64,000 nucleotides of DNA from a virus (Duplodnaviria > Caudoviricetes). Below the pieces are notes generated by a model. It had not been told where the DNA came from and did no database searches. It saw only the letters and a program-made list of their open reading frames with translations. The stretch lies in the IMG/VR virus record IMGVR_UViG_3300032285_001531. The stretch is one strand, 5' to 3'. The translations under genes and the position numbers were made by a program. Shown here one piece after another: positions 2,876-31,393 of this stretch (its first letter is position 1; the number at the start of each line of letters is the position of its first letter).

Positions 2876-3484
2876 ATGAAAATTTTTGAAGTACAAGAAC
2901 AAGAAGTAGTTGAACAGAAACCGCCTATGTTGTACCTTGACATGGACGGAGTTCAGGCAGACTTTTTTACAAGCTGGGCTTTATGGCACGGCGAGAAAAT
3001 TCAAAATCCTGAAGTACAAAGATACAAACAAATTGGTGACAAAGAAAAGCGTGAGGAAAGCATTCGTGCCTTACAAGCAGAAGGTCCTGAATTTGTCTAT
3101 CAGTTCTTTGCTACTTTACCAATACTTCCAAACGGTATGGCACTTGTGCAGTGGATCAAAGACAACAAGATTCCTTGCACAATCTTATCCGCTCCCCTAC
3201 GTTCAAGCCCTGAGGACAAACAAAAGTTAATCACGGCTGCAAGCATTGAGGGTAAGAAATATTGGCTCAGTCAACACAACCCCGGACTTCCTATGATATT
3301 TGACGGTATGAAGGAAAGATACGCTACAAAAGGCGGTCAACCTAACGTATTAGTTGATGACCATAAGAAGTACATTTCAGCATGGGAAGGTAAGGGCGGA
3401 ATCGGTATATTACACCGTGAACAAAATACTGACCATACCATTCAACAACTTAAACAGATATATGGAAAGTTTCTAGATAAATAG
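2876..3484 (+). CDS. 5'(3')-deoxyribonucleotidase-like HAD hydrolase
   Basis: YLDMDGV HAD motif I and LVDD motif IV. Confidence 0.8.
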   Translation: MKIFEVQEQEVVEQKPPMLYLDMDGVQADFFTSWALWHGEKIQNPEVQRYKQIGDKEKREESIRALQAEGPEFVYQFFATLPILPNGMALVQWIKDNKIPCTILSAPLRSSPEDKQKLITAASIEGKKYWLSQHNPGLPMIFDGMKERYATKGGQPNVLVDDHKKYISAWEGKGGIGILHREQNTDHTIQQLKQIYGKFLDK

Positions 3485-3511
3485 TATATTATCCTTAAAG
3501 GCAAATATACT

Positions 3512-4480
3512 ATGGAACACGATTTTTTCAAAAAATACATTGATATCATCAATGAGGCACAAGCTCCGGCGCCAGGCGCAATGCGCCCTACAACAGCACA
3601 AACATTAGCAGCTACTAGAGCGGCTAGTAATGCATCAGCTGGAGGTAACGTTCCACCAAACTCTCCAAAACAGATGCCGTACATGGCGCCGCAAAAGCAA
3701 GTTGGAGAACCGCAAAGAGTAGCACCCACAGCAAGTTTAGGTGGAATGTCACAATCAGCGGACGCAAAAACAGGTGATATTACTACTGCATTTAACGCAG
3801 GTGATGTGGGTGTATCATCAACAAAAACTCCCGGCGGATATGTAAAAGCAAAATCAATGGATTATCAAATGGGTGATGTTGGTGTTGCTCAATCTCAAAA
3901 TGCACCTAATTATGCTCAGGGACAAATTGCTGCACCTACTACAACTACTGCAACAACAGGTAGTGGAGCACAAGGAACAGCCGTAAGTGGTGTTGGCTTT
4001 GGTGGTGCGAGCGGTAGCAATGTTGGTAACAATACAGTTACTTCAGGTGATCAAGAACTAGCTGGTATAGCAAAAGGAATGACCCCTCAGCCAGGTCAAC
4101 AAACTGTGCAAGAAGAAGAAGAACCAGAATCAGTACGAGATTTACTAAAGAAATTACTTGACATCGTAAGAGACCACGAAGGTCCTAAAAAAGATTCTGA
4201 AAAAGAAGTAGACGAAGCTAAAAAAGATGATGGTAAGGATCAAAAGAATACAAGTACTACTAAAGATAATCCTTCTCAGAATCCAACAAAGACTGATATT
4301 CCAAAACGTGAGACACCAAAGAACACTTCTACTGTGATTGGAAAAGAAGATGACAAAGAAGAAGATGAAGAAAAAGTCACAGAAGATGAAAACCTATATC
4401 AGCGTGAGTACCAAGTGGCTGAGGAAAAAATTGAAGAATCTCTCCGTAGTTTATTAAAGGCTATCAAAGAAGGTAAATGA
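3512..4480 (+). CDS. Low-complexity putative virion/head protein
   Basis: ATAAATA motif upstream (3477-3483); Gly/Ala/Thr-rich middle, charged C-terminus. Confidence 0.55.
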   Translation: MEHDFFKKYIDIINEAQAPAPGAMRPTTAQTLAATRAASNASAGGNVPPNSPKQMPYMAPQKQVGEPQRVAPTASLGGMSQSADAKTGDITTAFNAGDVGVSSTKTPGGYVKAKSMDYQMGDVGVAQSQNAPNYAQGQIAAPTTTTATTGSGAQGTAVSGVGFGGASGSNVGNNTVTSGDQELAGIAKGMTPQPGQQTVQEEEEPESVRDLLKKLLDIVRDHEGPKKDSEKEVDEAKKDDGKDQKNTSTTKDNPSQNPTKTDIPKRETPKNTSTVIGKEDDKEEDEEKVTEDENLYQREYQVAEEKIEESLRSLLKAIKEGK

Positions 4481-5076
4481 GAGCAAGCGAGTTCATTACT
4501 GAAGATAGTAAGCCACAAATAGCATATGATGAATATGCTAGACAAATGGCTGAAAAGTATGGGATTCCACCTGGCATGGTTTTACATGCTATGAAGAAAG
4601 AAACAGGACACCTAGCTGATGATCCTGCAGCAAGAGCAACAGTTAGAGGTCCTAAAACTAAAAGTGGTGAACGTGCAGTAGGTGTTATGCAATTAATGCC
4701 TATAGCTGCAAAAGATGTAGGAGTTAAGGATCGTACTGATCCTTATGAAAATATACGAGGCGGTACAGAGTTGTTAGCCAAATACTACAATAGATATAGC
4801 AAAGATCCTACATTAGCATTAGCAGCATACAATGCAGGACCAACTGCTGTTGAAAAGTACGGCGGAATTCCACCATTCAAGCAAACCCAAAATTATGTAG
4901 CAGATTATGTACATGATGAAAGAACTATACCATCGGCACCGAAAGCTGATGATTCATGGACTAGTAAAATTTCAAATTATGTAAGTGATTTAGTATCTCC
5001 AAAACCATCAACCCCAGAACCAAAACCAGTTAAATCAAAGTCTGCTTATACTGACTTACCAACTTCTCAATATTAA
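4477..5076 (+). CDS. Lytic transglycosylase (SLT domain)
   Basis: KKET catalytic Glu, AVGVMQLMP, DPYENIRGG, ALAAYNAG motifs. Confidence 0.9.
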   Translation: MRASEFITEDSKPQIAYDEYARQMAEKYGIPPGMVLHAMKKETGHLADDPAARATVRGPKTKSGERAVGVMQLMPIAAKDVGVKDRTDPYENIRGGTELLAKYYNRYSKDPTLALAAYNAGPTAVEKYGGIPPFKQTQNYVADYVHDERTIPSAPKADDSWTSKISNYVSDLVSPKPSTPEPKPVKSKSAYTDLPTSQY

Positions 5077-5136
5077 TGGGAGAATTATTTTTATACTAAG
5101 TATTGTTATAATGATAATTTTCCTGTACAATAAGAT

Positions 5137-5319
5137 ATGAGCAAAAAGAACAAAGATCACAAAAGGTATGAGGTTATCACCCAAGAAGATACCAACGGTG
5201 ATGTTCTTATCCCCATTCCTCCTGCACTATTAACAGAGTTGAAATGGGAACCAGGTGATGACATTGAGTTTAATGTCGATAAGACTGGTCGATTCATTCT
5301 TAAAAAGGTTGACAAATGA
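5137..5319 (+). CDS. AbrB/MazE-like DNA-binding protein
   Basis: IPIPPALLTELKWEPGDDIEF pattern. Confidence 0.6.
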   Translation: MSKKNKDHKRYEVITQEDTNGDVLIPIPPALLTELKWEPGDDIEFNVDKTGRFILKKVDK

Positions 5320-5789
5320 GTATAACAACGATACCTCCATTAACTACATCAAATATTAAGCCTTTGACTGCTGCTGATTTATCCACTGTAGGGATTAATT
5401 CAGGAACATTAGGACATGTATACAATGGCACCGGTGGCGCCTATGGTATAGGATCACCTAACATAACATGGTCTGGCACAAGCTATCAACATCCTCAAAC
5501 TATAACACTAAATCCAAATCCAATTTCAAATGTATATACTAATGGTGCGATACAGAATTCTGGTACGATACAAGTAAAGGGTGATGCTGAGTTTGAAGGC
5601 AAGATTAAAGTAGGTGGAAAAGATTTAGTTGAGTTATTATCTAAGATAGAAGATAAATTAGCAATTTATAAACCTAATCCTGAACTAGAAGAAAAGTGGG
5701 AAGAACTACGTGAATTATCAAAACGTTATAAAGAACTAGAAGCTGAAATCAAAGAGAAAGAACAAGTGTGGGACATCCTCAAAAAATGA
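5316..5789 (+). CDS. Hypothetical protein
   Basis: ATGA overlap; C-terminal coiled coil. Confidence 0.55.
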   Translation: MSITTIPPLTTSNIKPLTAADLSTVGINSGTLGHVYNGTGGAYGIGSPNITWSGTSYQHPQTITLNPNPISNVYTNGAIQNSGTIQVKGDAEFEGKIKVGGKDLVELLSKIEDKLAIYKPNPELEEKWEELRELSKRYKELEAEIKEKEQVWDILKK

Positions 5790-5791
5790 TG

Positions 5792-5820
5792 TTGACACTT
5801 AATCATTTTGGTAGTAGAAT
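5792..5820 (+). promoter_or_regulatory. Sigma70 promoter
   Basis: TTGACA-17 nt-TAGAAT. Confidence 0.75.
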
Positions 5821-5850
5821 CATAATACAGTCAACTACTTCAATATTACT

Positions 5851-6240
5851 ATGACAATGCATCTAGCACATCCTGCACTCACTACAATGGGCAAGCGTAA
5901 GGGTAAACACAAATGGGCTTCTTCTGAGCAAAAGCGTAAAGCAGAGCAATTAGACCGTGAGTGGAAAGACTTGCAGGATAAATGGAAAATTGACGCTGAA
6001 GATAAAAAGCGCAGTCGTGCATTGAAGTCTAAGCCTTATATTCCTCCTAAAAATCCAAGACTAGCAGAGATACGTAATCTGCCTAGTGTTGATACAGGTC
6101 ACACTGGTGCTGTCACTATTAGACAAACACCAAAATACACAGGTGACAAAATCATTGGTATCGGTACTATGCATAAAAGTAATGCTGTGCCTATTTTTAC
6201 TGATGAAGCAGCAAAAGACATTAGTAAAATGAGGAGATAA
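5851..6240 (+). CDS. Basic hypothetical phage protein
   Basis: Long ORF after promoter; C-terminal [14 protein letters not shown]. Confidence 0.6.
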
Positions 6241-6455
6241 TGGCTAAAGAAGAAGGATTAAAAATTGATGGTAAAGTCATCGATGTATTACCAAATGCAA
6301 TGTTTAGGGTTGAATTACCGAACAAGCAGTTGATTATTGGTTACATATCAGGTAAAATGCGCAAGCATGACATCAAGATTCTACTAGGAGACACGGTAGA
6401 AGTAGAGTTCAGTCCATATGACTTAACTAGAGGCCGAATCACACGCCGCAGATAA
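6240..6455 (+). CDS. infA: Translation initiation factor IF-1
   Basis: MAKEE...[11 protein letters not shown]...[26 protein letters not shown]. Confidence 0.95.
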
Positions 6456-6463
6456 ATATTCTA

Positions 6464-7018
6464 ATGCGTGATATCATTACATTACTTGAGGATAAGAACA
6501 AACCTCAAGACATCGAAATAATTAATCTAAACTTTGAACCAAAAGACGTAAGCCCTGTCCTCAGCAAGGATACAATAGACTTACACTATGGTAAACTAGC
6601 CCATGGGTATGCAGAAAGATACAACAAGGGTGAAGGTGATCCTGATTTCAATTATGCAGGTGCATTTTTGCACAATACACTTTTCCCACAGTTCCGTGAA
6701 GTTCGTAATGATAACAAGCCTAATGGCCCTATGCTAGGATTCATCAAAAAACACTTTGGTGGATACGACAATATGAAGGATAAGTTTGAAGAAGAAGCTA
6801 TGAAGTTACAGGGTAGTAATTGGATTTATCTAGCGCACAATGGTACCATCAAAACAATCAAAAACCATGAAGTACGTAATGATATACTATTGTTAATTGA
6901 CTGGTGGGAACATGCATGGATCCTTGACTACGGCACAGATAAGAAAAAGTATCTAAAAGAACAGTGGAAGATCATCAACTGGAACGTCATCAACACACGT
7001 TGGGGCAAAAGTCTTTAA
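6464..7018 (+). CDS. sod: Fe/Mn superoxide dismutase
   Basis: LHYGK, AFLHN and DWWEHAW retain the four metal-ligand positions. Confidence 0.85.
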   Translation: MRDIITLLEDKNKPQDIEIINLNFEPKDVSPVLSKDTIDLHYGKLAHGYAERYNKGEGDPDFNYAGAFLHNTLFPQFREVRNDNKPNGPMLGFIKKHFGGYDNMKDKFEEEAMKLQGSNWIYLAHNGTIKTIKNHEVRNDILLLIDWWEHAWILDYGTDKKKYLKEQWKIINWNVINTRWGKSL

Positions 7019-7056
7019 ATATAATGGTCAAGCACGTAGTCAATAAATATTAGACT

Positions 7057-7755
7057 ATGTATACCGATCAAAAAATCAAAGTAGTAGTCGCTACCGAATA
7101 TTCACAAGAAGATTTTAAGCAGAAAGCTGAAACTGCTAAATCACTAATGGCTACAAATCAGAAAAATATCCAGATTCATATTGCCACCAATAATAAATCT
7201 AGTTTAGGTGAAGTATATAATAACATAATTGAACAGAGTTTAGATGAAGATTATATTATTGTGTTCATGCATGACGATGTTATGATACTTGATTACTTCT
7301 GGCCATTAAGGGTTACGGAAGCATTAAAGAAATATGACGTTGTTGGATTAGCAGGAAATATAAAGAGAGTTGACTATCAACCCGCATGGGGACATTTAAT
7401 CAAAGAAAGTGGATTTGTTTGGGATGAAAATACAAACCTAACTGGTACTGTTGCGCACGGTCAAAACTGGTACCCAAACAATATCAACTATTATGGTCCT
7501 AGCGATCAAGAAGTAAAACTCTTAGATGGAGTGTTCTTAGCAGCACATAGTAACACATTAAAACAATCAGGACTACGATTCGACCCACAGTTTGACTTTC
7601 ATTTCTATGACATGGACTTCTGTAGACAAGCAGAATTAAAGAATCTAAAGATGGGTACATTTCCACTAGCCATAATTCATGCAGGGACAGGGTCATTAGG
7701 TACTGCTGAATGGAGTAAGAATTTTCGCAAGTATGCAGATAAGTATACAAAATAA
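7057..7755 (+). CDS. Glycosyltransferase family 2-like protein
   Basis: FMHDDV DxD-like motif, VVGLAG, LDGVFLA, FHFYDMDFC. Confidence 0.75.
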   Translation: MYTDQKIKVVVATEYSQEDFKQKAETAKSLMATNQKNIQIHIATNNKSSLGEVYNNIIEQSLDEDYIIVFMHDDVMILDYFWPLRVTEALKKYDVVGLAGNIKRVDYQPAWGHLIKESGFVWDENTNLTGTVAHGQNWYPNNINYYGPSDQEVKLLDGVFLAAHSNTLKQSGLRFDPQFDFHFYDMDFCRQAELKNLKMGTFPLAIIHAGTGSLGTAEWSKNFRKYADKYTK

Positions 7756-7763
7756 GGAGTTAT

Positions 7764-8093
7764 ATGAATCTACAAGTATCAGAAAATGCCATAAAGAAAT
7801 TACATGAAATAGTAGAGGAGGAAAATGATCCTGCGCTAAGACTACGTATATTTGTACAAGGCGGTGGCTGTTCGGGTATGCAATATGGATTCACACTAGA
7901 TAATGAACAAAATGAAGATGACTTTGCAATTCCAGCAGGATCATTGAGTGTATTAATTGACAGTATTTCGGCACAATACTTAGAAAATGCTAGTATTGAC
8001 TACAGTGAAGATGTATACGGATCCAGCTTTAAAATCATTAATCCTAATGCTCAGACTACTTGTGGGTGTGGTTCTAGCTTTAATCCCTATTAA
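7764..8093 (+). CDS. erpA: Fe-S carrier protein ErpA/IscA (HesB family)
   Basis: GGGCSG and TCGCGSSF cysteine motifs. Confidence 0.9.
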   Translation: MNLQVSENAIKKLHEIVEEENDPALRLRIFVQGGGCSGMQYGFTLDNEQNEDDFAIPAGSLSVLIDSISAQYLENASIDYSEDVYGSSFKIINPNAQTTCGCGSSFNPY

Positions 8094-8123
8094 AGTAAGA
8101 TAAATACTAGATGAGGGACTAAA

Positions 8124-10307
8124 ATGCCTATACAAGGACAAGCAAATATCAACATTGGAGCACAGAATTCAGTCGCAAATAGCGATTCATTATTCACGGC
8201 TTTTAATAAAATACAGAATAATTTCACTACACTTTTCACAACCGCAAGTAACTACAATACTTTTGTTGGAAATAATGGAATAGCTACTGAGTCAACTAGT
8301 TCAACCGGTACACTCAAAATCACAAATACTGGCGTTATTAATGTAATAGCGGGAACTGGTATTACAGTAAACAGTGCCAACGGAAACGTTATAATCAGTA
8401 TGTCAGGTGACGGGACTGGTAATTTAGTGGCAGGTGTTACCAATGTTGCATTAGTTACTAATACATTAGAAATTACAGGTAGTCCTATAGTAAGTGCTGG
8501 AATTATGACAGTTGATTTGCCATTACTTCCTGCATTAGTACCCGGTCAATATGCTACACCAGTAATGTCAGTAGATGAATATGGTCGTGTAACACAAATT
8601 GCAAATTCAAGTATTGCTGGTACTGTTACTTCAGTTGCAGTAAGTGGTGGCAATGGTATTTCTATAACAGGCAGTCCGATAACATCAAATGGTACAATAA
8701 CTGTAACTAATACAGGTGTGACTAGAATTAATCCAGGTCCCGGTATTGTAGTAACTGATAACACCGGTGAACTAACAATTTCTGCAAAATTATCAAGCGG
8801 CACAGTATCACAAGTTAGTGTGTCTAGTACCACATTAACTATTACAAACCCAACAATAACTACAGCAGGTACTATTACCATTGACTTACCTACTAATATA
8901 AGCATAGTTGGTAATATAACTAATTCTGGTAATACAATAACATACGGCAACATCACAGGTAACAGAAATGTGCAGATAACTGGGAATCTGACAGCTAATG
9001 GTAATATTTCTGTAGCAGGAAACTTAGTAGCATCAACTCCAGATAATATCAAGATTGGTGGAGGTACATCAAGTTATTTCTTACAAACAGACGGTGGCGG
9101 CAATCTAAGTTGGCAACCAGCTCCGGGTGCAGTTGGAACTACAACTGCTGCTGCAGGTAGTAACACACAAGTACAATTTAATAATGCAGGTGCAATTGGT
9201 GCTAATGCTGGCTTTACTTTTGATAAAGTTACAGGAGTTTTTACTGCTCCTAAACTATCAGGTAACGGTGCTAGTGTAACTGGAGTATTATCTGCTAATA
9301 ACGCAAACTTTGCCGGATCAGTTACTGGTGCTACCCAAAGCAATATCACAACTGTTGGTAACTTGGTTAACTTATCTGTAGTTGGAAACATTAGAGCAAA
9401 TGGTAACGTAGTTGCATTAGGTACTATATCATCAACTGGTGCTATGTATGCACTGACTCCTAGTAATTCAATAAGTAACACGACAGTTGCTACTACAGAA
9501 TTTGTAAACAATGTTATATTAACTAAAGCTCCATTAAATAGTCCAATCTTTACTGGAATTCCACAAGCTCCTGAAGTTGCAAATATAGCAAACGTTATAT
9601 TCCCAAGTTCACAAATTGCTACATTGAATTTCGTAAAAGATTTTAACGCTAATAAAGCTCCTTTAACAAGTCCGAGTTTTAATGGTATTCCACTAACACC
9701 TGATGTCACATTAGCAAATGCCGTTACTGCACCAGCCAATCAAATTTCTACAATTAATTTTGCAAGAAACTATGCTAACAGCGTAGCAAGTAACTCTAGC
9801 TTCCAAACTTCAGGTACATTAGGTAGTGCTAGATTACCTTCAGGAACAATATTACAAGTTCAGATGGCAGTAAGTGGTCCGGCAAGACAACAAATTAATA
9901 CCACTCTTAATGTTGCAGTATTAGGTCTTAAAATTAACTTTACACCGTTATCAGCTACTAGCAGAATTATCATAGATTGTGTTATTAGTGCAACTCCTAC
10001 TTATGTTCAGGGTTTTGGAGTATACAAAGACGGAGTTCCTACAGTTAATAATAATGTTGGTGGCATAGCTCCTTGGACTGCTGGTTTTCAGGTTACTAGT
10101 TTTATAGGTGTTAGTACTGCATCTGATTGGATAATGCAAGTTCCATTTAAACATACTGAAATATCAGGATCTATTGTACCTAGAATTTATGAAGTTTATG
10201 CCGGATCTCATTGGCTTGGAGTAGCATATGATATGTATATCAATAACAGAAAATCAAACGATATGGCCAGCTTCAGTTATATGACAATCTATGAAGTAGC
10301 AGTGTAA
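8124..10307 (+). CDS. Tail fibre / baseplate-anchored fibre protein
   Basis: N-terminal INIG..DSLFTAFNKIQNNF anchor; G/T/N/V-rich repeats; two KAPLxSPxFxGIP fibre repeats; C-terminal GTILQVQ tip-like domain. Confidence 0.75.
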   Translation: MPIQGQANINIGAQNSVANSDSLFTAFNKIQNNFTTLFTTASNYNTFVGNNGIATESTSSTGTLKITNTGVINVIAGTGITVNSANGNVIISMSGDGTGNLVAGVTNVALVTNTLEITGSPIVSAGIMTVDLPLLPALVPGQYATPVMSVDEYGRVTQIANSSIAGTVTSVAVSGGNGISITGSPITSNGTITVTNTGVTRINPGPGIVVTDNTGELTISAKLSSGTVSQVSVSSTTLTITNPTITTAGTITIDLPTNISIVGNITNSGNTITYGNITGNRNVQITGNLTANGNISVAGNLVASTPDNIKIGGGTSSYFLQTDGGGNLSWQPAPGAVGTTTAAAGSNTQVQFNNAGAIGANAGFTFDKVTGVFTAPKLSGNGASVTGVLSANNANFAGSVTGATQSNITTVGNLVNLSVVGNIRANGNVVALGTISSTGAMYALTPSNSISNTTVATTEFVNNVILTKAPLNSPIFTGIPQAPEVANIANVIFPSSQIATLNFVKDFNANKAPLTSPSFNGIPLTPDVTLANAVTAPANQISTINFARNYANSVASNSSFQTSGTLGSARLPSGTILQVQMAVSGPARQQINTTLNVAVLGLKINFTPLSATSRIIIDCVISATPTYVQGFGVYKDGVPTVNNNVGGIAPWTAGFQVTSFIGVSTASDWIMQVPFKHTEISGSIVPRIYEVYAGSHWLGVAYDMYINNRKSNDMASFSYMTIYEVAV

Positions 10308-10350
10308 TTTCCTCCCATTTCAGCTAAATACTGAATAAAGGAGCAAAACG

Positions 10351-13194
10351 ATGGCTATACCAACCCCACAACAGACAATTATCAGCACAGGGACTGACCC
10401 TGCGTTGGCCACATATGGAAACGCACTAAATTCTGCGGCATATGTTTCTAATGGAAATGTTACTTACAACATTACCCAGATAGAACAAACGGTCCAAAAT
10501 ACTACCCTAACTAACAATTTCAACAATACTGCCGGAGGATCCGGCGGACAAGTTCAATTCAACGTCAATGGTGTGTTGACCGGTGATGCTGGCTTCATCT
10601 ACAATCCTAATAATGACACAGTAGTTGTTTCAGGAAATGTACTTACTGGCTCAATCAGTGCAACTGCTAATATTACTAGTGCAGGAAATATAAGCGCAAA
10701 CATTGTCAATGCAGCTAATTTAAGAACCGATCATCTACAACATGCAAACGGTGACTCCTATGTTTTCACTGCTGTAACAGGCAACATCACTTTTGATGAA
10801 GAAAACATCATAAGCACTGGCAATATGTATCTACAGCCAAATGACGCTAGTGCAAGTGCAGTTGACATTTATCTAACTGGAAGTAATGATGTTCATATGG
10901 CAACTAGTGCATCAGGTGATATGCTTTATGTAGGTGGAGATAATCAATATGTACGTTTAAACTCAACTGGTAATGTTGACATTCAATCATATGATTCAGG
11001 CACAGATACAACAAATACATGGAACTTTAATAATAACGGTCAGTTAGTATTTCCATATGGCGGAATTATTGGTCCAGACGGTGGAGAGAGTTTAATAGTC
11101 AATGCTAAAGATGGTGTAGCAATGTATTCTAGTAACAGTTTAGTAAGCACTGGTGCATTAGATTTATCTGCAGTATTTACTAATACTAATAACAATGATT
11201 TACCTGGTGTTGAAATTTGGGCTAGAGCAAAAGGAAATGCTACTAGTACATGGACGTTCAGTAAAGACGGGATAATGGCTTTCCCAAATAATCGAATCAA
11301 TGTTGGTGCTGAAAGTATTGATATCGTAAGTAGCAACTATAGCGAATTATTATTTGAAAATAGTGATGCAGCAAATGCAGCAAATGGTGACGGTATTACT
11401 TCATACATATATATTGAAGGGAATCAAGCAGGTACCGGAATTGAAACAAAGAACGGAGAGAATTATTACTGGTATAATTACAGTGACGGAACTGCTGTTT
11501 TCCCTGCAGGAATTTCAATCGAAAACAACTACAAACAATATTTTAATGTTATAGTTAACACTAATACTGGTTCAGGCATCAATCTTCGAATTAATATTAA
11601 TGTTACTGCTGCAGGTGAAATGATTATTGTAGGCATAGCAAACGGTGGTAGCGGATATGTTGTCGGTGATAGTGTTTTTGTTTTAGGTACTGCAATTAAT
11701 GGTACAAATTTACTTAATGATGTATACATGACCGTTGCTGCAGTTAATGGAAGTGGTACAATTACAAGCACTGGTGGGTTAACAATTGATACAACATATA
11801 CTCATCCACTAGACGGTGTTAAGTTTGCAGGTGGAGGTGTAGTATCTGGTACTGATGCTAACGGTAATGTAACTATTCAAACTTTTGATAGTGAAGGCCC
11901 TACCAGTTACAATTATGCGTTTACTAATCAAGGCACATTAGAAGCTTATGATAATTTTTATATCAAAAGTCCAAGTTTTGTTGACATGCTTTGGTATAAT
12001 GATAATGTAGTTGGATCTAAAAAGGTAGGTGATTCTGACACTACTGGATTCCATGCTCAAGATAATACTGCTACAATATATGGTTCATTATACAATGCAG
12101 GAAGCACTGAATGGAATTTTTCAAATGATGGTACATTGTCAGCTCCTGGTTCAATTCATATGAACGGAGACGGTAGATATTTTCAAGTTAGCGTAACTAG
12201 TGATACTGGATCTGGTGCTAATCTTCAAGTATTGGTTTATGTTAATCTTGCGGGAACTGTTAGTATCTCATCTATTAGTAACGGTGGACAATATTACAAC
12301 GTCGGTGATGTATTATTCATAGACGGTAGTTTAATTGGTGGCCATGAAATAGCTAATCAAATTAATATTGAAGTTATCGGAACAGGTACCGGTGGTGTTA
12401 TTGAAGGTACAGGTCAATTGACAATCACAAGCGGTATTGGTCCTAGATCAGGAGTAGAATTCAATAATTTTGCTGCAGTTCAAACTGATGACAATGCTAA
12501 CGGTAATTTAGTTTTCCAATCATTTAATACAAATACAGAAGAATTTTACTATTCAACATTTGATAATACAGGTAATCTATCTGTTCCAGGTGAAATTCAT
12601 TTAATAAATGACAATGCACACGGTGGTGCAGGTTATGCAGGAATGATAACATTTGAAAATACAACCAGTGGTGCGACCAACACTAAGAAATTTGTACGCA
12701 TGAATAGTACTGGTAATCTTGAAATTATCAATAATGGATACTCTACAACTTTATTATCATTATCTGATAGCGGTAACTTGAGCATTTATGGTAATGCTAA
12801 TGTAGGTAATTTAGGTACTACTACTGCTATTATCACTACAGGTAACATCACTACTGTTAATACTGGCTTAGTTCAGAATGGAAACTCAAACGTAACTATT
12901 ACTGCTAACGCAAATATTACACTAACTGCTACAAGCAATGCTACAATGGTTATCACTGGTACAGGTGCTAACGTAACTGGTTACGCTAATATATCAGGTA
13001 ATGTCAGTGCAGGTAATGTTTCAGGGGCAATTACTCTCGCTACACTAGCATTAAAAATGCCAGTATATGCAGATGCTACTGCTAGAGATGCAGCTATTAC
13101 TTCTCCGACTGCAGGTATGATAATTTATAATACTGGTTCAGGAAATGTGCAAGTTTATAGTGGTTCTGCTTGGGGTAATATAACTGTATCATAA
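10351..13194 (+). CDS. Long tail fibre / adhesin-like structural protein
   Basis: 947 aa G/N/T-rich; GQVQFN motif; internal module duplicated with a 213-aa period. Confidence 0.7.
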   Translation: MAIPTPQQTIISTGTDPALATYGNALNSAAYVSNGNVTYNITQIEQTVQNTTLTNNFNNTAGGSGGQVQFNVNGVLTGDAGFIYNPNNDTVVVSGNVLTGSISATANITSAGNISANIVNAANLRTDHLQHANGDSYVFTAVTGNITFDEENIISTGNMYLQPNDASASAVDIYLTGSNDVHMATSASGDMLYVGGDNQYVRLNSTGNVDIQSYDSGTDTTNTWNFNNNGQLVFPYGGIIGPDGGESLIVNAKDGVAMYSSNSLVSTGALDLSAVFTNTNNNDLPGVEIWARAKGNATSTWTFSKDGIMAFPNNRINVGAESIDIVSSNYSELLFENSDAANAANGDGITSYIYIEGNQAGTGIETKNGENYYWYNYSDGTAVFPAGISIENNYKQYFNVIVNTNTGSGINLRININVTAAGEMIIVGIANGGSGYVVGDSVFVLGTAINGTNLLNDVYMTVAAVNGSGTITSTGGLTIDTTYTHPLDGVKFAGGGVVSGTDANGNVTIQTFDSEGPTSYNYAFTNQGTLEAYDNFYIKSPSFVDMLWYNDNVVGSKKVGDSDTTGFHAQDNTATIYGSLYNAGSTEWNFSNDGTLSAPGSIHMNGDGRYFQVSVTSDTGSGANLQVLVYVNLAGTVSISSISNGGQYYNVGDVLFIDGSLIGGHEIANQINIEVIGTGTGGVIEGTGQLTITSGIGPRSGVEFNNFAAVQTDDNANGNLVFQSFNTNTEEFYYSTFDNTGNLSVPGEIHLINDNAHGGAGYAGMITFENTTSGATNTKKFVRMNSTGNLEIINNGYSTTLLSLSDSGNLSIYGNANVGNLGTTTAIITTGNITTVNTGLVQNGNSNVTITANANITLTATSNATMVITGTGANVTGYANISGNVSAGNVSGAITLATLALKMPVYADATARDAAITSPTAGMIIYNTGSGNVQVYSGSAWGNITVS

Positions 13195-24238: not shown

Positions 24239-24248
<10 letters not shown>

Positions 24249-24478
24249 CAATCATCTTCTTCATCTACACCATTGATAAAATCTTGTAACTTCTGCTTTG
24301 CTTCTTTTCTGCTTAATGCAGGTAGTGTAACAGTAGCAATACAATTTTTAATCTTTATATCAAACGGTACAACACCATGCGGCAGCCAGCCTTCTTCAAC
24401 CGGTACACTTACTGTGTACGATTTAAGTTTCATTATCCTATCAAGTATCTGTTTAGTAATATCCGCTGGATGTGGCAT
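24239..24478 (-). CDS. Hypothetical protein
   Basis: ORF between tRNAs. Confidence 0.5.
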
Positions 24479-24488
24479 AGTTGTTGAA

Positions 24489-24562
24489 TGGTGCCCCTTG
24501 ACAGAATCGAACTGCCAATTGATGATTACAAATCAACTGTTATACCATTTAACTAAAAGGGC
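24489..24562 (-). tRNA. tRNA-Thr(TGT)
   Basis: Loop TTTGTAA, CCA. Confidence 0.9.
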
Positions 24563-24569
24563 GTTTTAA

Positions 24570-24731
24570 CTACTTAGTCTTACTTTCTATAGCACGTTTA
24601 ATTTTCATAACATGCTTAGGTCTTGCTGATTCTAAAAGTTTAGTTAACTGCTCTACGTTAAGAGGACCTAATCTAGTTTTGCCTGTCTTAGTTTTCATTG
24701 GATCACGTTTACTATCTTTTTTTACTGCCAT
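24570..24731 (-). CDS. Small basic protein (53 aa, not in ORF track)
   Basis: MAVKKDSKRDPMKTKTGKTRLGPLNVEQL...; GAGGA RBS. Confidence 0.6.
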   Translation of the reverse strand: MAVKKDSKRDPMKTKTGKTRLGPLNVEQLTKLLESARPKHVMKIKRAIESKTK

Positions 24732-24750
24732 ATTTTCCTCTTTATGTTAA

Positions 24751-24845
24751 TGGCGAAGAGTATTGGATTCGAACCAATGAAGCAGATTTGTGTCCGCTTG
24801 CCTTCTTAGCAGGAAGGTGCCTTCGACCAACTCGGCCAACTCTCC
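24751..24845 (-). tRNA. tRNA-Ser(GCT)
   Basis: Loop CTGCTAA, long variable arm, G73, CCA. Confidence 0.9.
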
Positions 24846-24855
24846 GATACAACCT

Positions 24856-25077
24856 TTACTGCTTGTCCTCGTACTTCTCATTCAACTTATCTACACCGTG
24901 TGAGAATCTAAAATAACTCACTAGCATACTGTACATTGCATAAACAAGAAGTGCTATAGCAATCCATGTTATAGCTACTGGATTAATATAATATAGTACT
25001 GCATAACCACCTACTATCATAGCTAACAATGCAAGTATTGCCTTTACTTCTGGTTTCAAACTATTAAATTTGTTCAT
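24856..25077 (-). CDS. Small two-TM membrane protein
   Basis: AAGGA RBS; after promoter. Confidence 0.6.
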   Translation of the reverse strand: MNKFNSLKPEVKAILALLAMIVGGYAVLYYINPVAITWIAIALLVYAMYSMLVSYFRFSHGVDKLNEKYEDKQ

Positions 25078-25109
25078 ACATAGTCCTTTATAACGGTTTA
25101 AGAGATTTA

Positions 25110-25138
25110 ATTATATAATAAGTGCAGAGTAATGTCAA
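25110..25138 (-). promoter_or_regulatory. Sigma70 promoter (perfect consensus)
   Basis: TTGACA-17-TATAAT. Confidence 0.85.
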
Positions 25139-25142
25139 ACAC

Positions 25143-26306
25143 TTAAATTCTGACTTTATCCAAAAATCTATGCATTCCTTCTAATACGGGTATCCAATCA
25201 CCATATGTTGCTTGTCTGAATATTCTAGCAGTTGGATACCATGGACTTAATCCAGTATTAAGTAGATATCTCCAATCAACTGCAAATGCATTCAATGGTA
25301 TCCATAAGTCTTTACCCATTGCACCTGCTAAATGTGCAATTGCTGTATCTACACTGATTATCATATCCATATTCGCTACAACTGCTGCTGTATCGCCCCA
25401 ATGTCTAATATGACCAGGAAATCTTAAGAATGCATTACTATTTTCTATTAATTGCATTTCTTGTTGACTTGCATCAGCCTGTAAACTAACCCATTCAATA
25501 TCAGGATTAAGTTGTGCTAACTGAATCATTAATTCTACTGGCATTGCTTTATGTTGATTGATCCAACTATCTTTACGACCACTCCAACATACACCAATAC
25601 GCATTTTAGTTTTAGGCCCTAATGCAACTCGCCATTGTTCAACTAAATTAGGATCAGCTTGAATATATCCTATCTCTTTTGGCAATGTATCATAAGTTAC
25701 TCCTAATACTCTAGGAACACTCATAGTCATTACCCAATAATCAAATTCACCTGCATCATTGATATCAGTAATAACTCTATTAATATTAGGATCACGTTCA
25801 AATAACTCTTGCATACCCTGATGTGTATGGAAAATTACTTTTGCACCAAGTGCAGTTAAGTATTTTAAAAAACGATAGAATTGAATTGTATCACCTAAAC
25901 CTTGTTCCCAACATACTAAGATAGTTTTACCTGTTAAATCTTCACCATTCCATTCAGGCTGAGAAAATTTATATTTTGTATCTGCTAGATGTTCATATTG
26001 CCAACGCCATTCATATTGTTCAAGACCACGCTTTAAGTCTCCCATTAACATATATGCTACTGATAGATTAAACTGTGCTGTTATATAGTCAGGCACTAAT
26101 GCACATGCATGTTGTAAGAAAGGTATTGCACGTGCAGGATATCCCATTTCACGTAATACATTTCCATAATTATTCCATGCATGAGGGTTTGTTGGGTCTT
26201 TGACAAAGGCTTGAGCATAACATTCTAATGCTTTATCAGGCTGCGTTGAATTACGATATTCATTGCCCTGTTCAATTAAATCATTTACGTCTACTATATC
26301 TGTCAT
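25143..26306 (-). CDS. TPR-repeat protein fused to GT9-like glycosyltransferase
   Basis: N-terminal TPRs (AWNNYGNVL); WEQGLGDTIQF; ISVDTAIAHLAGAMG. Confidence 0.85.
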   Translation of the reverse strand: MTDIVDVNDLIEQGNEYRNSTQPDKALECYAQAFVKDPTNPHAWNNYGNVLREMGYPARAIPFLQHACALVPDYITAQFNLSVAYMLMGDLKRGLEQYEWRWQYEHLADTKYKFSQPEWNGEDLTGKTILVCWEQGLGDTIQFYRFLKYLTALGAKVIFHTHQGMQELFERDPNINRVITDINDAGEFDYWVMTMSVPRVLGVTYDTLPKEIGYIQADPNLVEQWRVALGPKTKMRIGVCWSGRKDSWINQHKAMPVELMIQLAQLNPDIEWVSLQADASQQEMQLIENSNAFLRFPGHIRHWGDTAAVVANMDMIISVDTAIAHLAGAMGKDLWIPLNAFAVDWRYLLNTGLSPWYPTARIFRQATYGDWIPVLEGMHRFLDKVRI

Positions 26307-26322
26307 TATATCACTCGTTGTT

Positions 26323-26410
26323 TGGCGGAAGCGGTGAGATTCGAACTCACGGACCCTTTCGAGCCTCTAGCTTTCAAGGCTAGTGTAATCGGCCACTCTA
26401 CCACACTTCC
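26323..26410 (-). tRNA. tRNA-Ser(TGA)
   Basis: Loop CTTGAAA, long variable arm, CCA. Confidence 0.92.
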
Positions 26411-26650
26411 TTATTTTCTATTCCTAAGTTTCATTCCTACATATGTACCACAAAATGCACCTATACATGCAGGTATTAATAACATATGATCGGCGGTATA
26501 TTCAATCACAGCTAAACTACCAATTAACCATACAATAGCACCCCAAAGACTAGCTGTTAGGGCGGCATTTTCACTGATAGCTTTTAAATAGTATGTATAG
26601 AATATATCTACTACAAACACTGCAAGAAAGGTAGTTAGGTAACTTATCAT
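26411..26650 (-). CDS. Small three-TM membrane protein
   Basis: Start refined to MISYLT; hydrophobic. Confidence 0.6.
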   Translation of the reverse strand: MISYLTTFLAVFVVDIFYTYYLKAISENAALTASLWGAIVWLIGSLAVIEYTADHMLLIPACIGAFCGTYVGMKLRNRK

Positions 26651-26666
26651 TGTTAAGGTATAATTG

Positions 26667-26689
26667 AAGCGGGTGATAATCACCCGCTT
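26667..26689 (-). terminator. Hairpin downstream of dnaK
   Basis: AAGCGGGTGAT/ATCACCCGCTT inverted repeat. Confidence 0.6.
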
Positions 26690-26695
26690 TGATGC

Positions 26696-28588
26696 TTAAT
26701 TTGCTTCTTTTACTTCGGCATCAACAACTGTTTCATCAGTTGGAGGACCATCTGGCATTTCTTTGTTGCGCTTCTCAGCTTCCCAAGCAATAGTTTTCTG
26801 CATCAACTCACCAATTTCTTTAACTGCTGCGTCCATGTCATCTTTACTATCGCCCTTTGCCGTCTCTTTATATTTACTTAGAGATTCAGTGATGGCTGTT
26901 TTTTCCTCAGCAGGAACATAATCACCTAAATTCTCAATTTGAGATTCAAGATGACCAATGCTACTATCTAAACTATTACGTGCACCAACAAGTTCAACAA
27001 TTTTCTTATCTTCTTCAGCATTCAATTCAGCATCTTTGACCATTTGATCAATCTCTTGCTCTGATAAGCCACTGTTTGCTTTGATTGTGATTTCTTTTTC
27101 TTTGTTGGTTTTCTTATCAACTGCTTTAACTGATAAGATACCATTCGCATCAATGTCAAATGTAACTTCAATTTGTGGTACTCCGCGTGGTGCTGGATCG
27201 ATACCTTCTAAATTGAATTCACCTAAACGTTTGTTACCACTTACAATCTCACGTTCACCTTGATAAACACTGATAGTAACTGATGGCTGATTGTTTTCTG
27301 CAGTAGAATAAACTTGACTGTACTTTGTAGGTATAGTTGTGTTCTTCTTAATCATCTTAGTCATAACACCACCCATTGTTTCAATGCCTAATGATAATGG
27401 AGTTACATCTAATAACAATACGTCTTTACGATCACCACCTAATACTGCACCTTGAATTGCTGCACCAACTGCAACGGCTTCATCAGGATTAACATCTTTA
27501 CGTGGAGCCTTACCGAATAGCTTCTCAACTTCTTCTTGCACCTTAGGCATACGTGTCATACCACCAACAAGAATAATCTCATCAATGTCACTTGCAGTAA
27601 CGCCTGCATCTTTCATTGCAACTTTACATGGCTCAATACTACGCTGAATTAAATCTTCTACTAATGATTCTAACTTAGCACGTGTGATCTTAACATTCAA
27701 ATGCTTAGGACCAGTTGCATCTGCAGTGATGTATGGTAAGTTAACATCAGTTTGTGTACTGTTAGATAGTTCAATCTTTGTACGTTCTGCTGCCTCTTTC
27801 AAACGTTGTAGTGCCATCATGTCTTTACTTAAATCAACACCTGAATCTTTTTTGAACTCAGCAATGATGTGATCCATTATTCTTTGGTCAAAATCTTCAC
27901 CGCCCAAGAATGTGTCACCGTTTGTGGAAAGTACTTCGAATTGTTTATCGCCATCCACATTATTGATGTCAATGATAGATATATCAAAAGTACCGCCACC
28001 AAGATCATAGACAGCAACTTTGCGGTCTGTTTTTTCATTCTTATCTACTCCATATGCCAATGCTGCTGCAGTTGGCTCATTAATAATACGCAATACTTCT
28101 AAGCCTGCAATTCTACCTGCATCCTTAGTTGCTTGACGTTGACTGTCATTAAAGTACGCTGGTACTGTAATAACTGCTTGTGTAACTTCTTCACCTAAGA
28201 AATCTTCTGCTGTCTTTTTCATCTTACGTAAAACTTCAGCACTTATTTGAGGTGGTGCATACTTCTTATCTTCTACTTGTACCCATGCATCACCGTTATC
28301 TGCTGCAACGATTTTATATGGAATCAAGTCAATATCTTTCTGTACTGCTTTCTCATCAAACTTACGTCCGATTAGTCGCTTAGCAGCATAGATTGTATTT
28401 TTTGGATTAGTTACAGCTTGACGTTTTGCTGGTGCACCAACAGTGATTTCACCGTTTTGCATATACGCAATAATACTAGGTGTAGTTCTTGCACCTTCGC
28501 TGTTCTCTAATACTTTTGGGGTTTTGCCATCTATGATAGCAACGCATGAATTGGTAGTACCTAGGTCGATACCTATAATCTTAGACAT
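26696..28588 (-). CDS. dnaK: Chaperone DnaK (Hsp70)
   Basis: [30 protein letters not shown]; full length; AAGGAG RBS. Confidence 0.98.
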
Positions 28589-28692
28589 ATTTTTCTCCTT
28601 TAAATTAAGCAAGATTTTTTATCAGAAGCCCGTAAGGCGCATCTGAGACATGTATTTATACATGGGAAAATGTAAAATATCAATATATTTGG

Positions 28693-28768
28693 TGGTGCCC
28701 ATTGACGGATTCGAACCGCCGACCTACTGATTACTAATCAGTTGCTCTACCAACTGAGCTAAATGGGC
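28693..28768 (-). tRNA. tRNA-Thr(AGT), A34 anticodon
   Basis: Canonical 76-nt cloverleaf, GCCCATT/AATGGGC acceptor, loop TTAGTAA, CCA. Confidence 0.9.
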
Positions 28769-29373
28769 TACTTTTTCTTATAAATCTTTACGTCAATCTT
28801 TCCGCTGAAAGGAATAGATTTGACTAATGCAAAGTGCTTCTCTACTTCTTTAAAAACATTAAAATCATCATTGAACCAGATGACACTATTATCTGACCTA
28901 ACATCACCGGGAACTAATCTACCTTCAGCTTCGTTAAGCAATATAAAGTATCCATCTTTACGCATAGCATCAGCTATAGTTTCTATCTCTTTTACTGGGT
29001 GTTCTACATGCTGCAAAACGTATGCAGCTAAGCAAACATCAATTACTCCCTTACGGATGAATGAACTGCAGGTAACAAATTTATTAGAATCAGCAACATA
29101 CATTGTGGCCAACTTTAGCATGTCAATACTCATGTCTAACCCAATAACTTCACATTTGAATCTCTCAATCAATTGTTTGCTTACACGACCCATTCCGCAT
29201 CCAAAATCAAGTACAACTTTTTGATCAGATATGATATTTTCGTTAGCAATTATATTGACTAATTGATTGGTCTCATCCTCAAATTTATTAGGATTTGCAG
29301 GATCCGGGGTCAATACAATGTCTTTTGCATGTTGCATAGAAGCCGGAATAAATGTTTCGTATAAGTATTTCAT
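28768..29373 (-). CDS. Class I SAM-dependent methyltransferase
   Basis: VLDFGCGMGR motif I, GLDMS, YVLQH. Confidence 0.85.
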   Translation of the reverse strand: MKYLYETFIPASMQHAKDIVLTPDPANPNKFEDETNQLVNIIANENIISDQKVVLDFGCGMGRVSKQLIERFKCEVIGLDMSIDMLKLATMYVADSNKFVTCSSFIRKGVIDVCLAAYVLQHVEHPVKEIETIADAMRKDGYFILLNEAEGRLVPGDVRSDNSVIWFNDDFNVFKEVEKHFALVKSIPFSGKIDVKIYKKK

Positions 29374-29441
29374 AATCTTTATATATGTGTTTTAAGTTTG
29401 CCCGTTATTTTTCGGAGTATCTGACTGATAAATACTATATT

Positions 29442-30434
29442 ATGCTAATCAACGAGATTCTAACAGAAGCCATCAGTCTAACACAATACGAAAGTAAGGT
29501 GCAAGGTATGATTATTAAAGGGCTCCAAAAGGCTCTAAAACGTTTATCCAAAACTAAAGGTAAATTTCCCGAAGAAGAACAGGAATTAACACAGAATGAT
29601 CGTAGCTATCCATTTAGAACACAAATGGTGAATCTTTTTACAAGATATCTAGCCACCGATATTGCTAAAGAATTCAAAAACTTAAAAACTATTGACGGTG
29701 TTCAAGTGGACACTATCAAGTTTATCAAATCTGAGTATGGCGGATACGCACAAGGAACTGATCTTTACATCGGTTCTATAATTATAAAAAATATTGCCAG
29801 AACAACAATTGATACTATCGATCAATTTTGCATTGATGCGTCAGGTGAATATCCTGATCGTGTTACTACATTTTTCACAATGTGTTCTATAATTGCTGAT
29901 GGGGTAGACAGGCATAGTAAATTCTTACTGAATGAAATACTTGACCAAATTCAACCAAGTGTAGATTCTATAATTAACACTGTTACACATGAAATGGTTC
30001 ACACAACTCAACATGGTCGCCAGTTTCAAAAAGGAAGAAGTAACCTTGAATATCGCAGTTATTTGGATAAAAAGAAAGGCGAGTTTATAAAGTTACACAA
30101 CAACAAAGACTGGAATAAAAATCCTCGTGCAAGAGAATTGTATTACGCTAGTCCACAAGAGATTCCTGCATTTGCACATGAAATCGCTCTGTATATTATT
30201 CGTGCGTATGCTCTACCAGAAATAACTTCAGTTGAAGAAATTTCAACAGTAACTCCTGAAGATATTACTTACGCAATGTCTAGATATCCAATGATAGCAA
30301 GTCTTGCTACTAATCCTGATCCTAGAGCAAAGAAAGTTTATCAACGCTATGCTAAATTAATATACTCGGAAGTTCAGAATTACATTCAACAATTAAAACA
30401 GAAACTAACTAAAGAAGCGGTACCTGCTACTTAA
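29442..30434 (+). CDS. Putative zinc metallopeptidase-like virion protein
   Basis: Start refined to MLINEILTE after ATAAATA (29428-29434); HEMVH...QEIPAFAHE. Confidence 0.6.
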   Translation: MLINEILTEAISLTQYESKVQGMIIKGLQKALKRLSKTKGKFPEEEQELTQNDRSYPFRTQMVNLFTRYLATDIAKEFKNLKTIDGVQVDTIKFIKSEYGGYAQGTDLYIGSIIIKNIARTTIDTIDQFCIDASGEYPDRVTTFFTMCSIIADGVDRHSKFLLNEILDQIQPSVDSIINTVTHEMVHTTQHGRQFQKGRSNLEYRSYLDKKKGEFIKLHNNKDWNKNPRARELYYASPQEIPAFAHEIALYIIRAYALPEITSVEEISTVTPEDITYAMSRYPMIASLATNPDPRAKKVYQRYAKLIYSEVQNYIQQLKQKLTKEAVPAT

Positions 30435-30908
30435 GTTAGATTTATCATTTACCATACGGTCAAATTGACCACTCTTACCATCAAAGTAAAATCCACTAGG
30501 GTCTAGTATCTGACCTCGTAACTCAACCCAACTATGCGGTATCCATTTGAATTCTTCACGTATTGCAGGATCACTGTTTATGTATTTGATGCGGTCTGAT
30601 TTCTTGCGTGGATCAAGACCTAATTGTTTCATTGCTAATTTATCTTTTGTTTCTAGTGCGTCAATATGTAGATCAGGTTCGTCTGCATGAAACCATCCAT
30701 ATTTTTTCTTGCCGTTGTTTACAATACCAATAGGAACAATCTCGGCATTACCTATACCTTTATTCTCTAAGAATGATATAAAATCTTGACTGGCGCCATA
30801 ACAATTATCTTGTACAAAGTAATAGTTCAATTGCATTGGACTAGCTTGCTTCCAAAACTCAATTAATAATGGATCAATTTTTGATCCTGCAAGTTCAAAG
30901 ATTTTCAT
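30405..30908 (-). CDS. Transglutaminase/papain-like protein
   Basis: Start refined to MKIFEL; candidate triad DNCY / HSWVE / ILDP. Confidence 0.55.
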   Translation of the reverse strand: MKIFELAGSKIDPLLIEFWKQASPMQLNYYFVQDNCYGASQDFISFLENKGIGNAEIVPIGIVNNGKKKYGWFHADEPDLHIDALETKDKLAMKQLGLDPRKKSDRIKYINSDPAIREEFKWIPHSWVELRGQILDPSGFYFDGKSGQFDRMVNDKSNLSSRYRFFS

Positions 30909-31393
30909 TTTATACGAGGAATGACGTTGGTATCCCAATAGCTTTTCTTACCAATGCGACTTTTATCTACGTCTGGTAAATCTTGCCATTGTTTAGAACG
31001 TTGTTTGCTTTGCTCTACATCAAAGCCTGTGTAGTCATCAGGTACCCATTGCCATTTGTGATGATAGATCCAAGGATCAACTGCCTGTTTAGTTACTTTA
31101 ACGGTACCATCTGGTGATACTCTGATACTGGTACCACTGATTGGTTCGTCTGCAGTATCAAAGTCAGGTGATTCTATGAATGAGAATGTTTTTAACTTGG
31201 GATTGTATTTGATTACAGTAAAGTCAAAATCATTTGGGATTTTTGATTGTGCAAACTTTAATTCGTCTGCAGGAATTCCGGCTTCTATCGCATATTGTTT
31301 ATGCACATAAAGTTCTCCGCCAATACGCTTTCCTATCTTTCTAGGTTGTTGCGCAGCTTCTACTATGTTAATTAATTTACGTATATCACTCAT
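30905..31393 (-). CDS. Stand-alone domain resembling phosphorothioation-associated methyltransferase repeat
   Basis: GKRIGGELYVHK, SFIESPDFD, PWIYHHK...DDY; start refined to MSDIRK. Confidence 0.5.
   Translation of the reverse strand: MSDIRKLINIVEAAQQPRKIGKRIGGELYVHKQYAIEAGIPADELKFAQSKIPNDFDFTVIKYNPKLKTFSFIESPDFDTADEPISGTSIRVSPDGTVKVTKQAVDPWIYHHKWQWVPDDYTGFDVEQSKQRSKQWQDLPDVDKSRIGKKSYWDTNVIPRIK

Follow-up and report, generated by a model that had tools for sequence, protein, structure and literature searches.

Candidate T4-type capsid-targeting propeptides on a variable set of enzymes encoded by an uncultured giant phage

The 64-kb viral DNA of IMG/VR record IMGVR_UViG_3300032285_001531 (Duplodnaviria; Caudoviricetes), analysed here over its whole length and called the window below, encodes seven proteins that begin with short N-terminal tags ending in I/L/V-x-E. 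A preliminary description of this DNA had proposed that such tags direct enzymes into the phage head for delivery at infection. Judged from sequence, the tags are probably T4-type capsid-targeting, protease-processed propeptides carried by a variable set of enzyme cargo, a reading to which we assign a probability of about 0.68. What held of the earlier proposal is its sequence part: the tags have a T4-like form, lie outside the folds, are conserved as peptides and sit on late-type genes, in a lineage that has a prohead protease, a head module and a late sigma factor.

All seven peptides were found at the positions originally given. On the plus strand, MKIFE opens an NT5C/HAD-type 5'-nucleotidase (2876..3484); MEHDFFKKYIDIINE, followed by AQ, a 322-residue low-complexity, highly charged protein (3512..4480); MRASEFITE, followed by D, an SLT-family lytic transglycosylase of 199 residues (4477..5076); MRDIITLLE, followed by DKNKPQD, a compact Fe/Mn superoxide dismutase (SOD, 6464..7018); and MLINEILTE, followed by AI, a 330-residue protein with a HEMVH zincin-like motif (29442..30434). 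On the minus strand, MKIFE, followed by L, opens a 167-residue probable transglutaminase/papain-fold Cys-His-Asp hydrolase (30405..30908), and MSDIRKLINIVE, followed by AA, a 162-residue protein of phrog_16075 (30905..31393). The proteins are referred to below by the position of their start. Pairwise BLASTP among the seven gave no match below E = 0.1, which agrees with the initial statement that they are unrelated. The residue after the terminal Glu (P1') is Ala in three tags, Asp in two, and Val and Leu in the two MKIFE tags. Three tag types coexist, namely a 9-mer MRxxEFxxE, a 12-15-mer ...KKYIxIxxE followed by A, and the 5-mer MKIFE. A hydrophobic residue at P4 or P5 is present in the SLT protein (F6), the SOD (I5), the 29442 protein (I6), the 31393 protein (I9, P4) and the 3512 protein; the MKIFE tags are too short to judge.

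The 29442 tag begins at the second ATG of an open reading frame (ORF) opening at 29385, and the 31393 tag at the third start of an ORF opening at 31423. The starts of the 4477 and 30908 genes overlap the upstream stop codon (ATGA), which for the SLT gene is the stop of the 3512 gene, and the 2876 start shares bases with the stop codon of a 28-codon mini-ORF (TAATG). This mini-ORF (2790-2876, MINTFLIIIGFVAAVLFIRWL...), just before the NT5C gene, encodes a hydrophobic membrane peptide; upstream of it are two small membrane proteins that are paralogues (1221-1499 and 2443-2793; phrog_18771).

The tags were compared with those of the T4 head. In the T4 record, the internal proteins IPII and IPIII both start with MKTYQEFIAE, as the preliminary description had it, followed by A. 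In the same record, gp22 starts with MLKEQLIAE followed by A, gp21 with MNEPQLLIE, gp24 with MAKINELLRE followed by S, and Inh with MIDKDYIAE, and gp23 has ...FLTE before AEIGG. According to reviews, the first 10 residues of IPIII are enough for packaging (PMC9026906, PMC5694885, PMC3012670). Residues 4 and 7 of this capsid-targeting sequence (CTS) serve targeting and residues 8 and 10 processing (PMC9026906), and foreign enzymes fused to the CTS are both packaged and carried into cells (PMC9026906; PMC5694885).

The likeness to IPI, IPII, IPIII and Alt, whose CTS is cut by gp21, lies in a tag of about 10 residues, in I/L-x-E before a small residue, and in unrelated, fast-evolving late proteins as bearers; MKTYQEFIAE followed by A in IPII and IPIII may be set beside MRASEFITE followed by D and MLINEILTE followed by A in the window. 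The window lineage likewise has a gp21-family protease and a head module in T4 order. However, the T4 internal proteins are small and basic, whereas the window cargo consists of recognisable enzymes whose packaging and cleavage are predicted, and the window phage combines several tag types. The T4 CTS is 10-19 residues long, whereas the two MKIFE tags have only 5. The propeptides of T4 gp22, gp21, gp24, gp23, gp68 and Inh also end in h-x-E (h, hydrophobic), as do those of head proteins in a relative of the window phage. These T4 core and shell proteins have structural or assembly roles and come from head-module genes, whereas the window encodes enzymes, dispersed among tail-fibre, tRNA and accessory genes.

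The SOD offers the most extensive set of sequences for analysis. The protein matched Pfam Sod_Fe_C (PF02777) with E = 4.4e-22, and its N-terminal hairpin domain fell under the Pfam cut-off (20 vs 27 bits). The enzyme looks active, because the four metal-ligand positions, H41, H70, D146 and H150, do not vary across an alignment of 44 sequences. In the structural model (mean predicted local distance difference test score, pLDDT, of 93), tag residues 2-11 form a separate low-confidence helix followed by a linker, and the fold starts at about residue 17-25. MRDIIxLLE was kept in 63 distinct gapless relatives, with I5 and E9 invariant. Over tag codons 2-9, synonymous sites were saturated (pS 0.69, with Arg2 in five different codons) while the peptide was kept (pN/pS 0.25), which places the constraint on the peptide and not on the RNA.

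When 1.8 billion cluster representatives were searched, 150 diverged SODs were obtained, of which 34 had no extension, as in cellular SODs; four had signal peptides. Among the 65 clusters that were at most 60% identical to the query and had an extension of 8-35 residues, h-x-E was present in 60, against 25.8 ± 3.5 (maximum 39) in 2000 composition-preserving shuffles (z ~10). P3 was Leu or Ile in 54 of the 61 sites tallied and P1' was Ala, Gly or Ser in 39. The tag Glu lay 6-7 residues ahead of the SOD fold in 40 diverged clusters. The diverged tags varied widely in sequence; one of them, MTEDVRKLINLIE followed by AA, is near-identical to the tag of the unrelated 31393 protein. The family comprises at least 2767 clusters at 90% identity; our literature searches revealed no publication describing a SOD encoded by a phage, whether packaged in the virion or not. 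Immediately ahead of the SOD gene, a 71-residue gene (6240-6455) reads as a candidate translation initiation factor IF-1 and is conserved in 52 related loci.

The window has 35% G+C, 16 tRNA genes and 99 called genes, which encode, among others, DnaK, a class I ribonucleotide reductase, several radical-SAM proteins and long tail-fibre-like proteins; head genes are absent from it. Megablast of positions 2800-12000 against a collection of sequenced phages gave no match, and IMG/VR contained no exact copy of a 36-mer taken from the start of the SOD. Homologues of 51 of the 99 proteins were present in the relatives G003 (335 kb) or G004 (303 kb), and IMG/VR contigs, the longest being 524 kb, carry hundreds of SOD relatives. 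Among cultured phages with a window-type SOD, the nearest are Pseudomonas jumbo phages of the PA5oct group (39% identity). The source is most likely an uncultured giant T4-type phage of a PA5oct/RaK2-like freshwater group.

In the 2876 protein, a 17-residue extension (MKIFE/VQEQEVVE/QKPP) precedes the canonical MLYLDMDG start, with candidate cut sites after E5, E8 and E13, and the Pfam NT5C and phrog_2643 matches start at residue 14-18. Sixteen of 18 distinct NT5C orthologues had an h-x-E tag (e.g. MMRIRELLEE, MKIKELMED) and the other two had none; many of these tags stand directly behind AGATAAATA. A paralogue in the nucleotide-metabolism cluster of the window (61581-62084) opens at the catalytic motif, MKTLYLDMDG, with no tag. 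The 3512 protein matched no family in Pfam and PHROG searches. Its tag type (...KKYIDIINE followed by A) recurs on an unrelated G004 protein, MSTELFRKYIDMLNE followed by S, and the PA5oct SOD homologue also bears a long tag of this type, MNDSIKKYISIAE followed by A.

The 4477 protein matched Pfam SLT (PF01464) over residues 20-140 (E = 1.1e-18, 67.3 bits against a cut-off of 21.3), and its PHROG matches include internal virion proteins with a lysin domain. Cell-wall passage at entry would fit as the role of such an enzyme. An orthologue starting MRAKEFIFE was found on IMG/VR contig 3300042691_032331 (L001), where its gene is one of seven that follow one another and are translationally coupled (L001:787-7178). 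All seven have MRAxEFxxE-like starts and all have different products, of 121-560 residues, including zincin-like, GNAT-like and ParB-like proteins. The run looks like a dedicated cargo array.

For the 29442 protein, no Pfam family was found, an Atlas search gave only viral clusters without names, and a locus search returned no relatives; a homologue was met only as the upstream half of a fusion (L092:496-1944 and L093:496-1944), in which a 29442-like zincin module is joined to a 31393-like module. The fusion starts with MRYNEFVNE followed by AI, behind TAAATA, and contains an internal joint, TLNE/RAIGKK, where the tag of the window 31393 protein ends. In this joint and in the L001 run, the tags behave as cassettes. 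The 31393 protein resembles the N-terminal domain of KVP40.0371, and every homologue of it that we examined had a different h-x-E leader (MSIIFE in KVP40, MLTFKQFITE in L094, MITFKRFLAE in L095/96). The 31393-type domain of L095/96 is joined to a methyltransferase-like module. The protein adjoining the KVP40 homologue, KVP40.0372 (L130, NC_005083.2 232374-232967), starts with MIEFLTE. This start suggests that KVP40, a T4-like vibriophage, also has unlisted tagged proteins.

Sixty-one homologues of the 30908 protein keep M-R/K-L/I-F/Y-E, and the most diverged have MKSFKQFLKE or MKIIELLAE. C36, H125 and D136 are invariant in 36 sequences of this family. Its AlphaFold model had a mean pLDDT of 91, with residues 1-8 below 50. 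In VIA-align, TglA, LapG and SseI were the best matches (Z 5.3-5.7) and, with PeiW included, the overall Z scores of 4.6-5.7 were weak; all of the best matches belong to the transglutaminase/papain superfamily. Foldseek of the model against the PDB returned nothing at E ≤ 0.001. The proteases originally listed among the cargo come down to a motif-level guess for the 29442 protein (HExxH) and a fold-level guess for the 30908 protein, and not more than that. The functional readings of the SLT, 30908 and 29442 proteins are leads only.

The Pfam domains of the nucleotidase, SLT and SOD proteins start at residue 14-20, past the tags, and alignments and models together indicate that the tags lie outside the folded domains. 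The motif through which they were first recognised, (I/L/V)-x-E, did not stand as defined, but it did under a stricter pattern and in orthologues. Within the first 15 residues, h-x-E was found in 18-22% of internal protein windows and 27-31% of N-termini in these proteomes. A 5-mer set beforehand on the T4 tag (acidic/Gln-h-h-x-E) was 2.5- to 4.3-fold enriched at N-termini. A strict positional pattern, M(M)-R/K/N-x-x-E/Q-h-h-x(1-2)-E, was matched by 16 proteins of the window, G003 and G004 taken together and by none of 3352 control windows set at internal Met residues; the SLT protein is the only window protein that fits it. Past residue 15 the bearers of this pattern are unrelated, except where they are orthologues in G003 and G004 or, in one case, two small paralogues side by side. 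Three tag patterns, run over every ATG in six frames, matched nowhere except at the first ATG of a real ORF or close to it. In six of the seven proteins, orthologues kept an h-x-E tag even after the tag sequence had changed.

Other window proteins with an N-terminal h-x-E were rejected, namely IscA (7764), a parvulin-like protein (22685), a TPR protein (25143), a radical-SAM protein (42818) and a membrane protein (1221). They were left out because the triplet lies inside a conserved domain or an orthologue has no extension, as is the case for the G004 orthologue of the 42818 protein.

Late expression in T4 uses the late promoter TATAAATA and the sigma factor gp55. In the window, an ATAAATA box lies 5 nt ahead of the ATG of the SOD gene, a Shine-Dalgarno sequence being absent between the two (6452..6458, plus strand), 7 nt before the ATG at 29442 (29428..29434, plus strand) and 5 nt before the ATG at 31393 (31399..31405, minus strand). 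Four tagged genes had been placed behind this motif in the preliminary description; the number is corrected to these three, with the box 5-7 nt before the ATG. The other four tagged genes are translationally coupled within their units. ATAAATA occurs 24 times in the window, counting both strands, and 13 of these lie within 0-20 nt before a called start, against 0.4 expected under uniform placing, although such box-to-start counts are partly circular for 29442 and 31393, because the start caller rewarded ATAAATA. Nine genes, the three tagged ones included, have the box 5-7 nt before the ATG and no Shine-Dalgarno sequence (window positions 6452, 7043, 23903(-), 29428, 31405(-), 32453(-), 36704, 42816(-) and 47918), and four have it 16-19 nt before the ATG with a Shine-Dalgarno sequence between. 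If the close box works like the T4 late promoter, the late mRNAs would be leaderless or nearly so. Among relatives, ATAAATA stands 4-7 nt before the ATG in 38 of 62 distinct SOD upstream regions. From these sequences, the tags appear to sit on late-type genes.

The machinery that such tags would need was found in the lineage. A gene for a Peptidase_S77 protease (PF03420, gp21 family) was present in five of five large relatives with a window-type SOD, and also in PA5oct, KVP40 and Vibrio phage 2.275.O. The head module of G004 follows the T4 order, with gp20 portal, small core protein, acidic protein, protease, scaffold-sized protein and gp23. Its 75-residue core protein, behind ATAAATA, starts with MKLFE followed by M, and next to it is the acidic protein of 273 residues. 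The protease starts with MALYLKE followed by H, the scaffold-sized protein with MFDAIKPLLE followed by S, and another head protein with MSKVLLE followed by G; in gp23, the Pfam domain begins at residue 54, after ...QLLAE followed by SS. A gp55-like late sigma factor is also encoded in G004.

We propose that an amphipathic tag of 5-15 residues would dock a late-made protein on the scaffolding core of the assembling prohead, and that the gp21-family prohead protease would cut at the hydrophobic-x-Glu that ends the tag. The mature SOD, SLT transglycosylase, nucleotidase, zincin-like protein and Cys-His-Asp hydrolase, together with the 3512 and 31393 proteins, would stay in the head with the DNA and, by analogy with the T4 internal proteins, would leave with it at infection. 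In its widest form, the proposal would be that a large, mostly freshwater group of T4-type phages loads active SOD into the capsid and delivers it with a changing set of enzymes, among them a wall-cutting enzyme, a nucleotidase and peptidase-like proteins. The pre-made SOD would then blunt a host oxidative response or protect the entering DNA. We hold this version to be tentative, with the odds against it.

Several points weigh against the capsid-targeting reading. Docking, cleavage, virion presence and injection of the tagged proteins are all steps that we infer. The loose (I/L/V)-x-E motif is common by chance and not distinctive, the box counts have the partial circularity described above, and the protease and head genes were seen in relatives only and not in the window. 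The weakest members are the two MKIFE tags, which at 5 residues are shorter than any tag tested in T4, and from the window alone the internal Met18 may be an alternative start of the 2876 gene. For the 3512 protein, the search for orthologues returned none by which to gauge conservation. Counter-evidence also comes from PA5oct, as follows.

The only experimental hint of packaging, and a weak one, is the detection of PA5oct gp261 (MK797984.1 172979-173527; L090:2956-3504). This protein, annotated as hypothetical, is a tagged Fe/Mn-SOD homologue that starts with MNDSIKKYISIAE followed by AAS, and it carries an ESI-MS/MS note (tandem mass spectrometry, MS, with electrospray ionization), which in that GenBank record means that it was found in virion preparations. 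It is like the window SOD as its closest cultured homologue (39% identity), with its own tag and the MS flag, but its gene lies near those for ClpX, ClpS, ClpP and FtsH and not in a late block. The PA5oct paper mentions neither gp261 nor SOD. The list of 93 MS-detected proteins also holds ribonucleotide reductase, thymidylate synthase, DNA ligase, ClpP and FtsH, none of them tagged; contamination of the preparation is likely and the gp261 detection weak, because these untagged cytoplasmic enzymes are on the same list. Generic h-x-E patterns were not enriched in the 93 detected proteins over the 239 other PA5oct proteins (p = 0.13-0.95), in a comparison of low power, since tail parts make up most of the virion proteins and cytoplasmic enzymes were present in the preparation. 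The strict clade pattern had no match among the annotated PA5oct proteins and one match in a six-frame scan, which was not MS-detected. Proteins with the short M-x-h-F/I-E type were detected in 3 of 3 cases against a baseline of 28%, for a pattern picked after seeing the data. Several MS-detected proteins annotated as structural start with MKINDIITE, MKLFE, MHLFE, MKILEFNLTE or (V)RLNEINLIE.

The alternative that survives best is that the tags are true propeptides and the proteins enter the head, but act inside the particle or in assembly and are not injected. The SOD might, for example, shield the DNA in the capsid against oxidative damage where the water is sunlit, and the 3512 protein, which is charged, might be a core- or scaffold-like part. 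All of the packaging evidence applies equally to this alternative. True head-core proteins of G004 and T4 bear the same kind of tag, the 3512 protein is low in complexity and highly charged, as core proteins are, and the rubrerythrin, rubredoxin-like, glutaredoxin and IscA/ErpA-type proteins of the window point to an oxidative-stress theme. However, CTS-tagged proteins of T4, foreign enzymes included, reach the cell (PMC9026906), and a transglycosylase and a nucleotidase would be obviously useful at entry and of no use in a sealed capsid. We consider it unlikely that the proteins act only in the particle or in assembly.

A lower probability still is given to the tags being an N-terminal signal unrelated to the capsid, such as a site recognised by a modifying enzyme, a signal for degradation or for chaperones, or a feature for the translation of leaderless late mRNAs. 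The window does encode DnaK and five radical-SAM-type proteins (36.7-49.7 kb), PA5oct encodes ClpX, ClpS, ClpP and FtsH beside its SOD, and in the three tagged genes with the box 5-7 nt from the ATG the first codons could matter for initiation. However, four of the seven tagged genes are translationally coupled and not leaderless, and the saturated synonymous sites of the SOD tag, next to a conserved peptide, argue against a signal in the RNA. As leaders for radical-SAM enzymes, the tags would be in the wrong places: none of the tagged genes adjoins a radical-SAM gene, the nearest, 31393, being 5.3 kb and several genes away and the SOD block about 30 kb, and the bearers, at 160-330 residues and with several recognisable enzymes among them, are not small precursors. 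The sole invariant of the diverged tags is a gp21 site (L/I-x-E and a small residue) whose spacing from the fold is constant, something that none of these signals predicts.

Chance together with mis-called starts is a very improbable explanation, since although an AT-rich genome yields many I/L/V-x-E triplets near N-termini (h-x-E falls within 15 residues in about 20% of random windows, three of the seven tags depend on a start codon other than the first of the ORF, and the triplets of IscA, parvulin and radical-SAM 42818 look coincidental), the 0 of 3352 controls matching the strict pattern, the conservation in orthologues of six of the seven proteins and the SOD shuffle (z ~10) largely refute it for the SLT, SOD, NT5C, 29442, 30908 and 31393 proteins, with the 3512 protein still exposed to it.

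The capsid-targeting reading was also set against other phage systems. The ejection proteins of phiKZ and SPN3US have propeptides that are cut after Glu by a gp21-related protease (gp175/gp245) and are ejected into the host (PMC5694885). They differ in their S/A/G-x-E motif, long propeptides, other head architecture and S80 protease, whereas the window phage is T4-like (S77), with Leu or Ile at P3. T7 gp16-type proteins likewise place an SLT-family domain inside the particle for use at entry; gp16, however, is a 1300-residue core protein with no CTS or protease processing, unlike the 199-residue single-domain SLT enzyme with its T4-type tag.

If the tags work as in T4, the proteins delivered by giant phages would be predictable from metagenome sequence, and the known phage cargo would widen from small anti-restriction proteins to full enzymes. 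SOD is the most testable case, with a very large family, a cut site at a fixed distance from the fold, and a cultured relative, PA5oct, with an overlooked MS detection. Engineering of non-coli jumbo phages might also make use of the tags as packaging handles.

Two groups of other genes in the window were recorded. An oxidative-stress and Fe-S set comprises the SOD at 6464, an IscA/ErpA-like protein (7764-8093), rubrerythrin (35247-35714) and a rubredoxin-like CxxC mini-protein (35113-35247), and a glutaredoxin-like protein (56740-56964) belongs to the same theme. The second group is the cluster of five radical-SAM-type genes at 36.7-49.7 kb, beside which lie three tandem paralogues (49747-51931) of 234-246 residues, all starting with M-x-I/L-A-F/Y-L-P-I-E/D-I-D.

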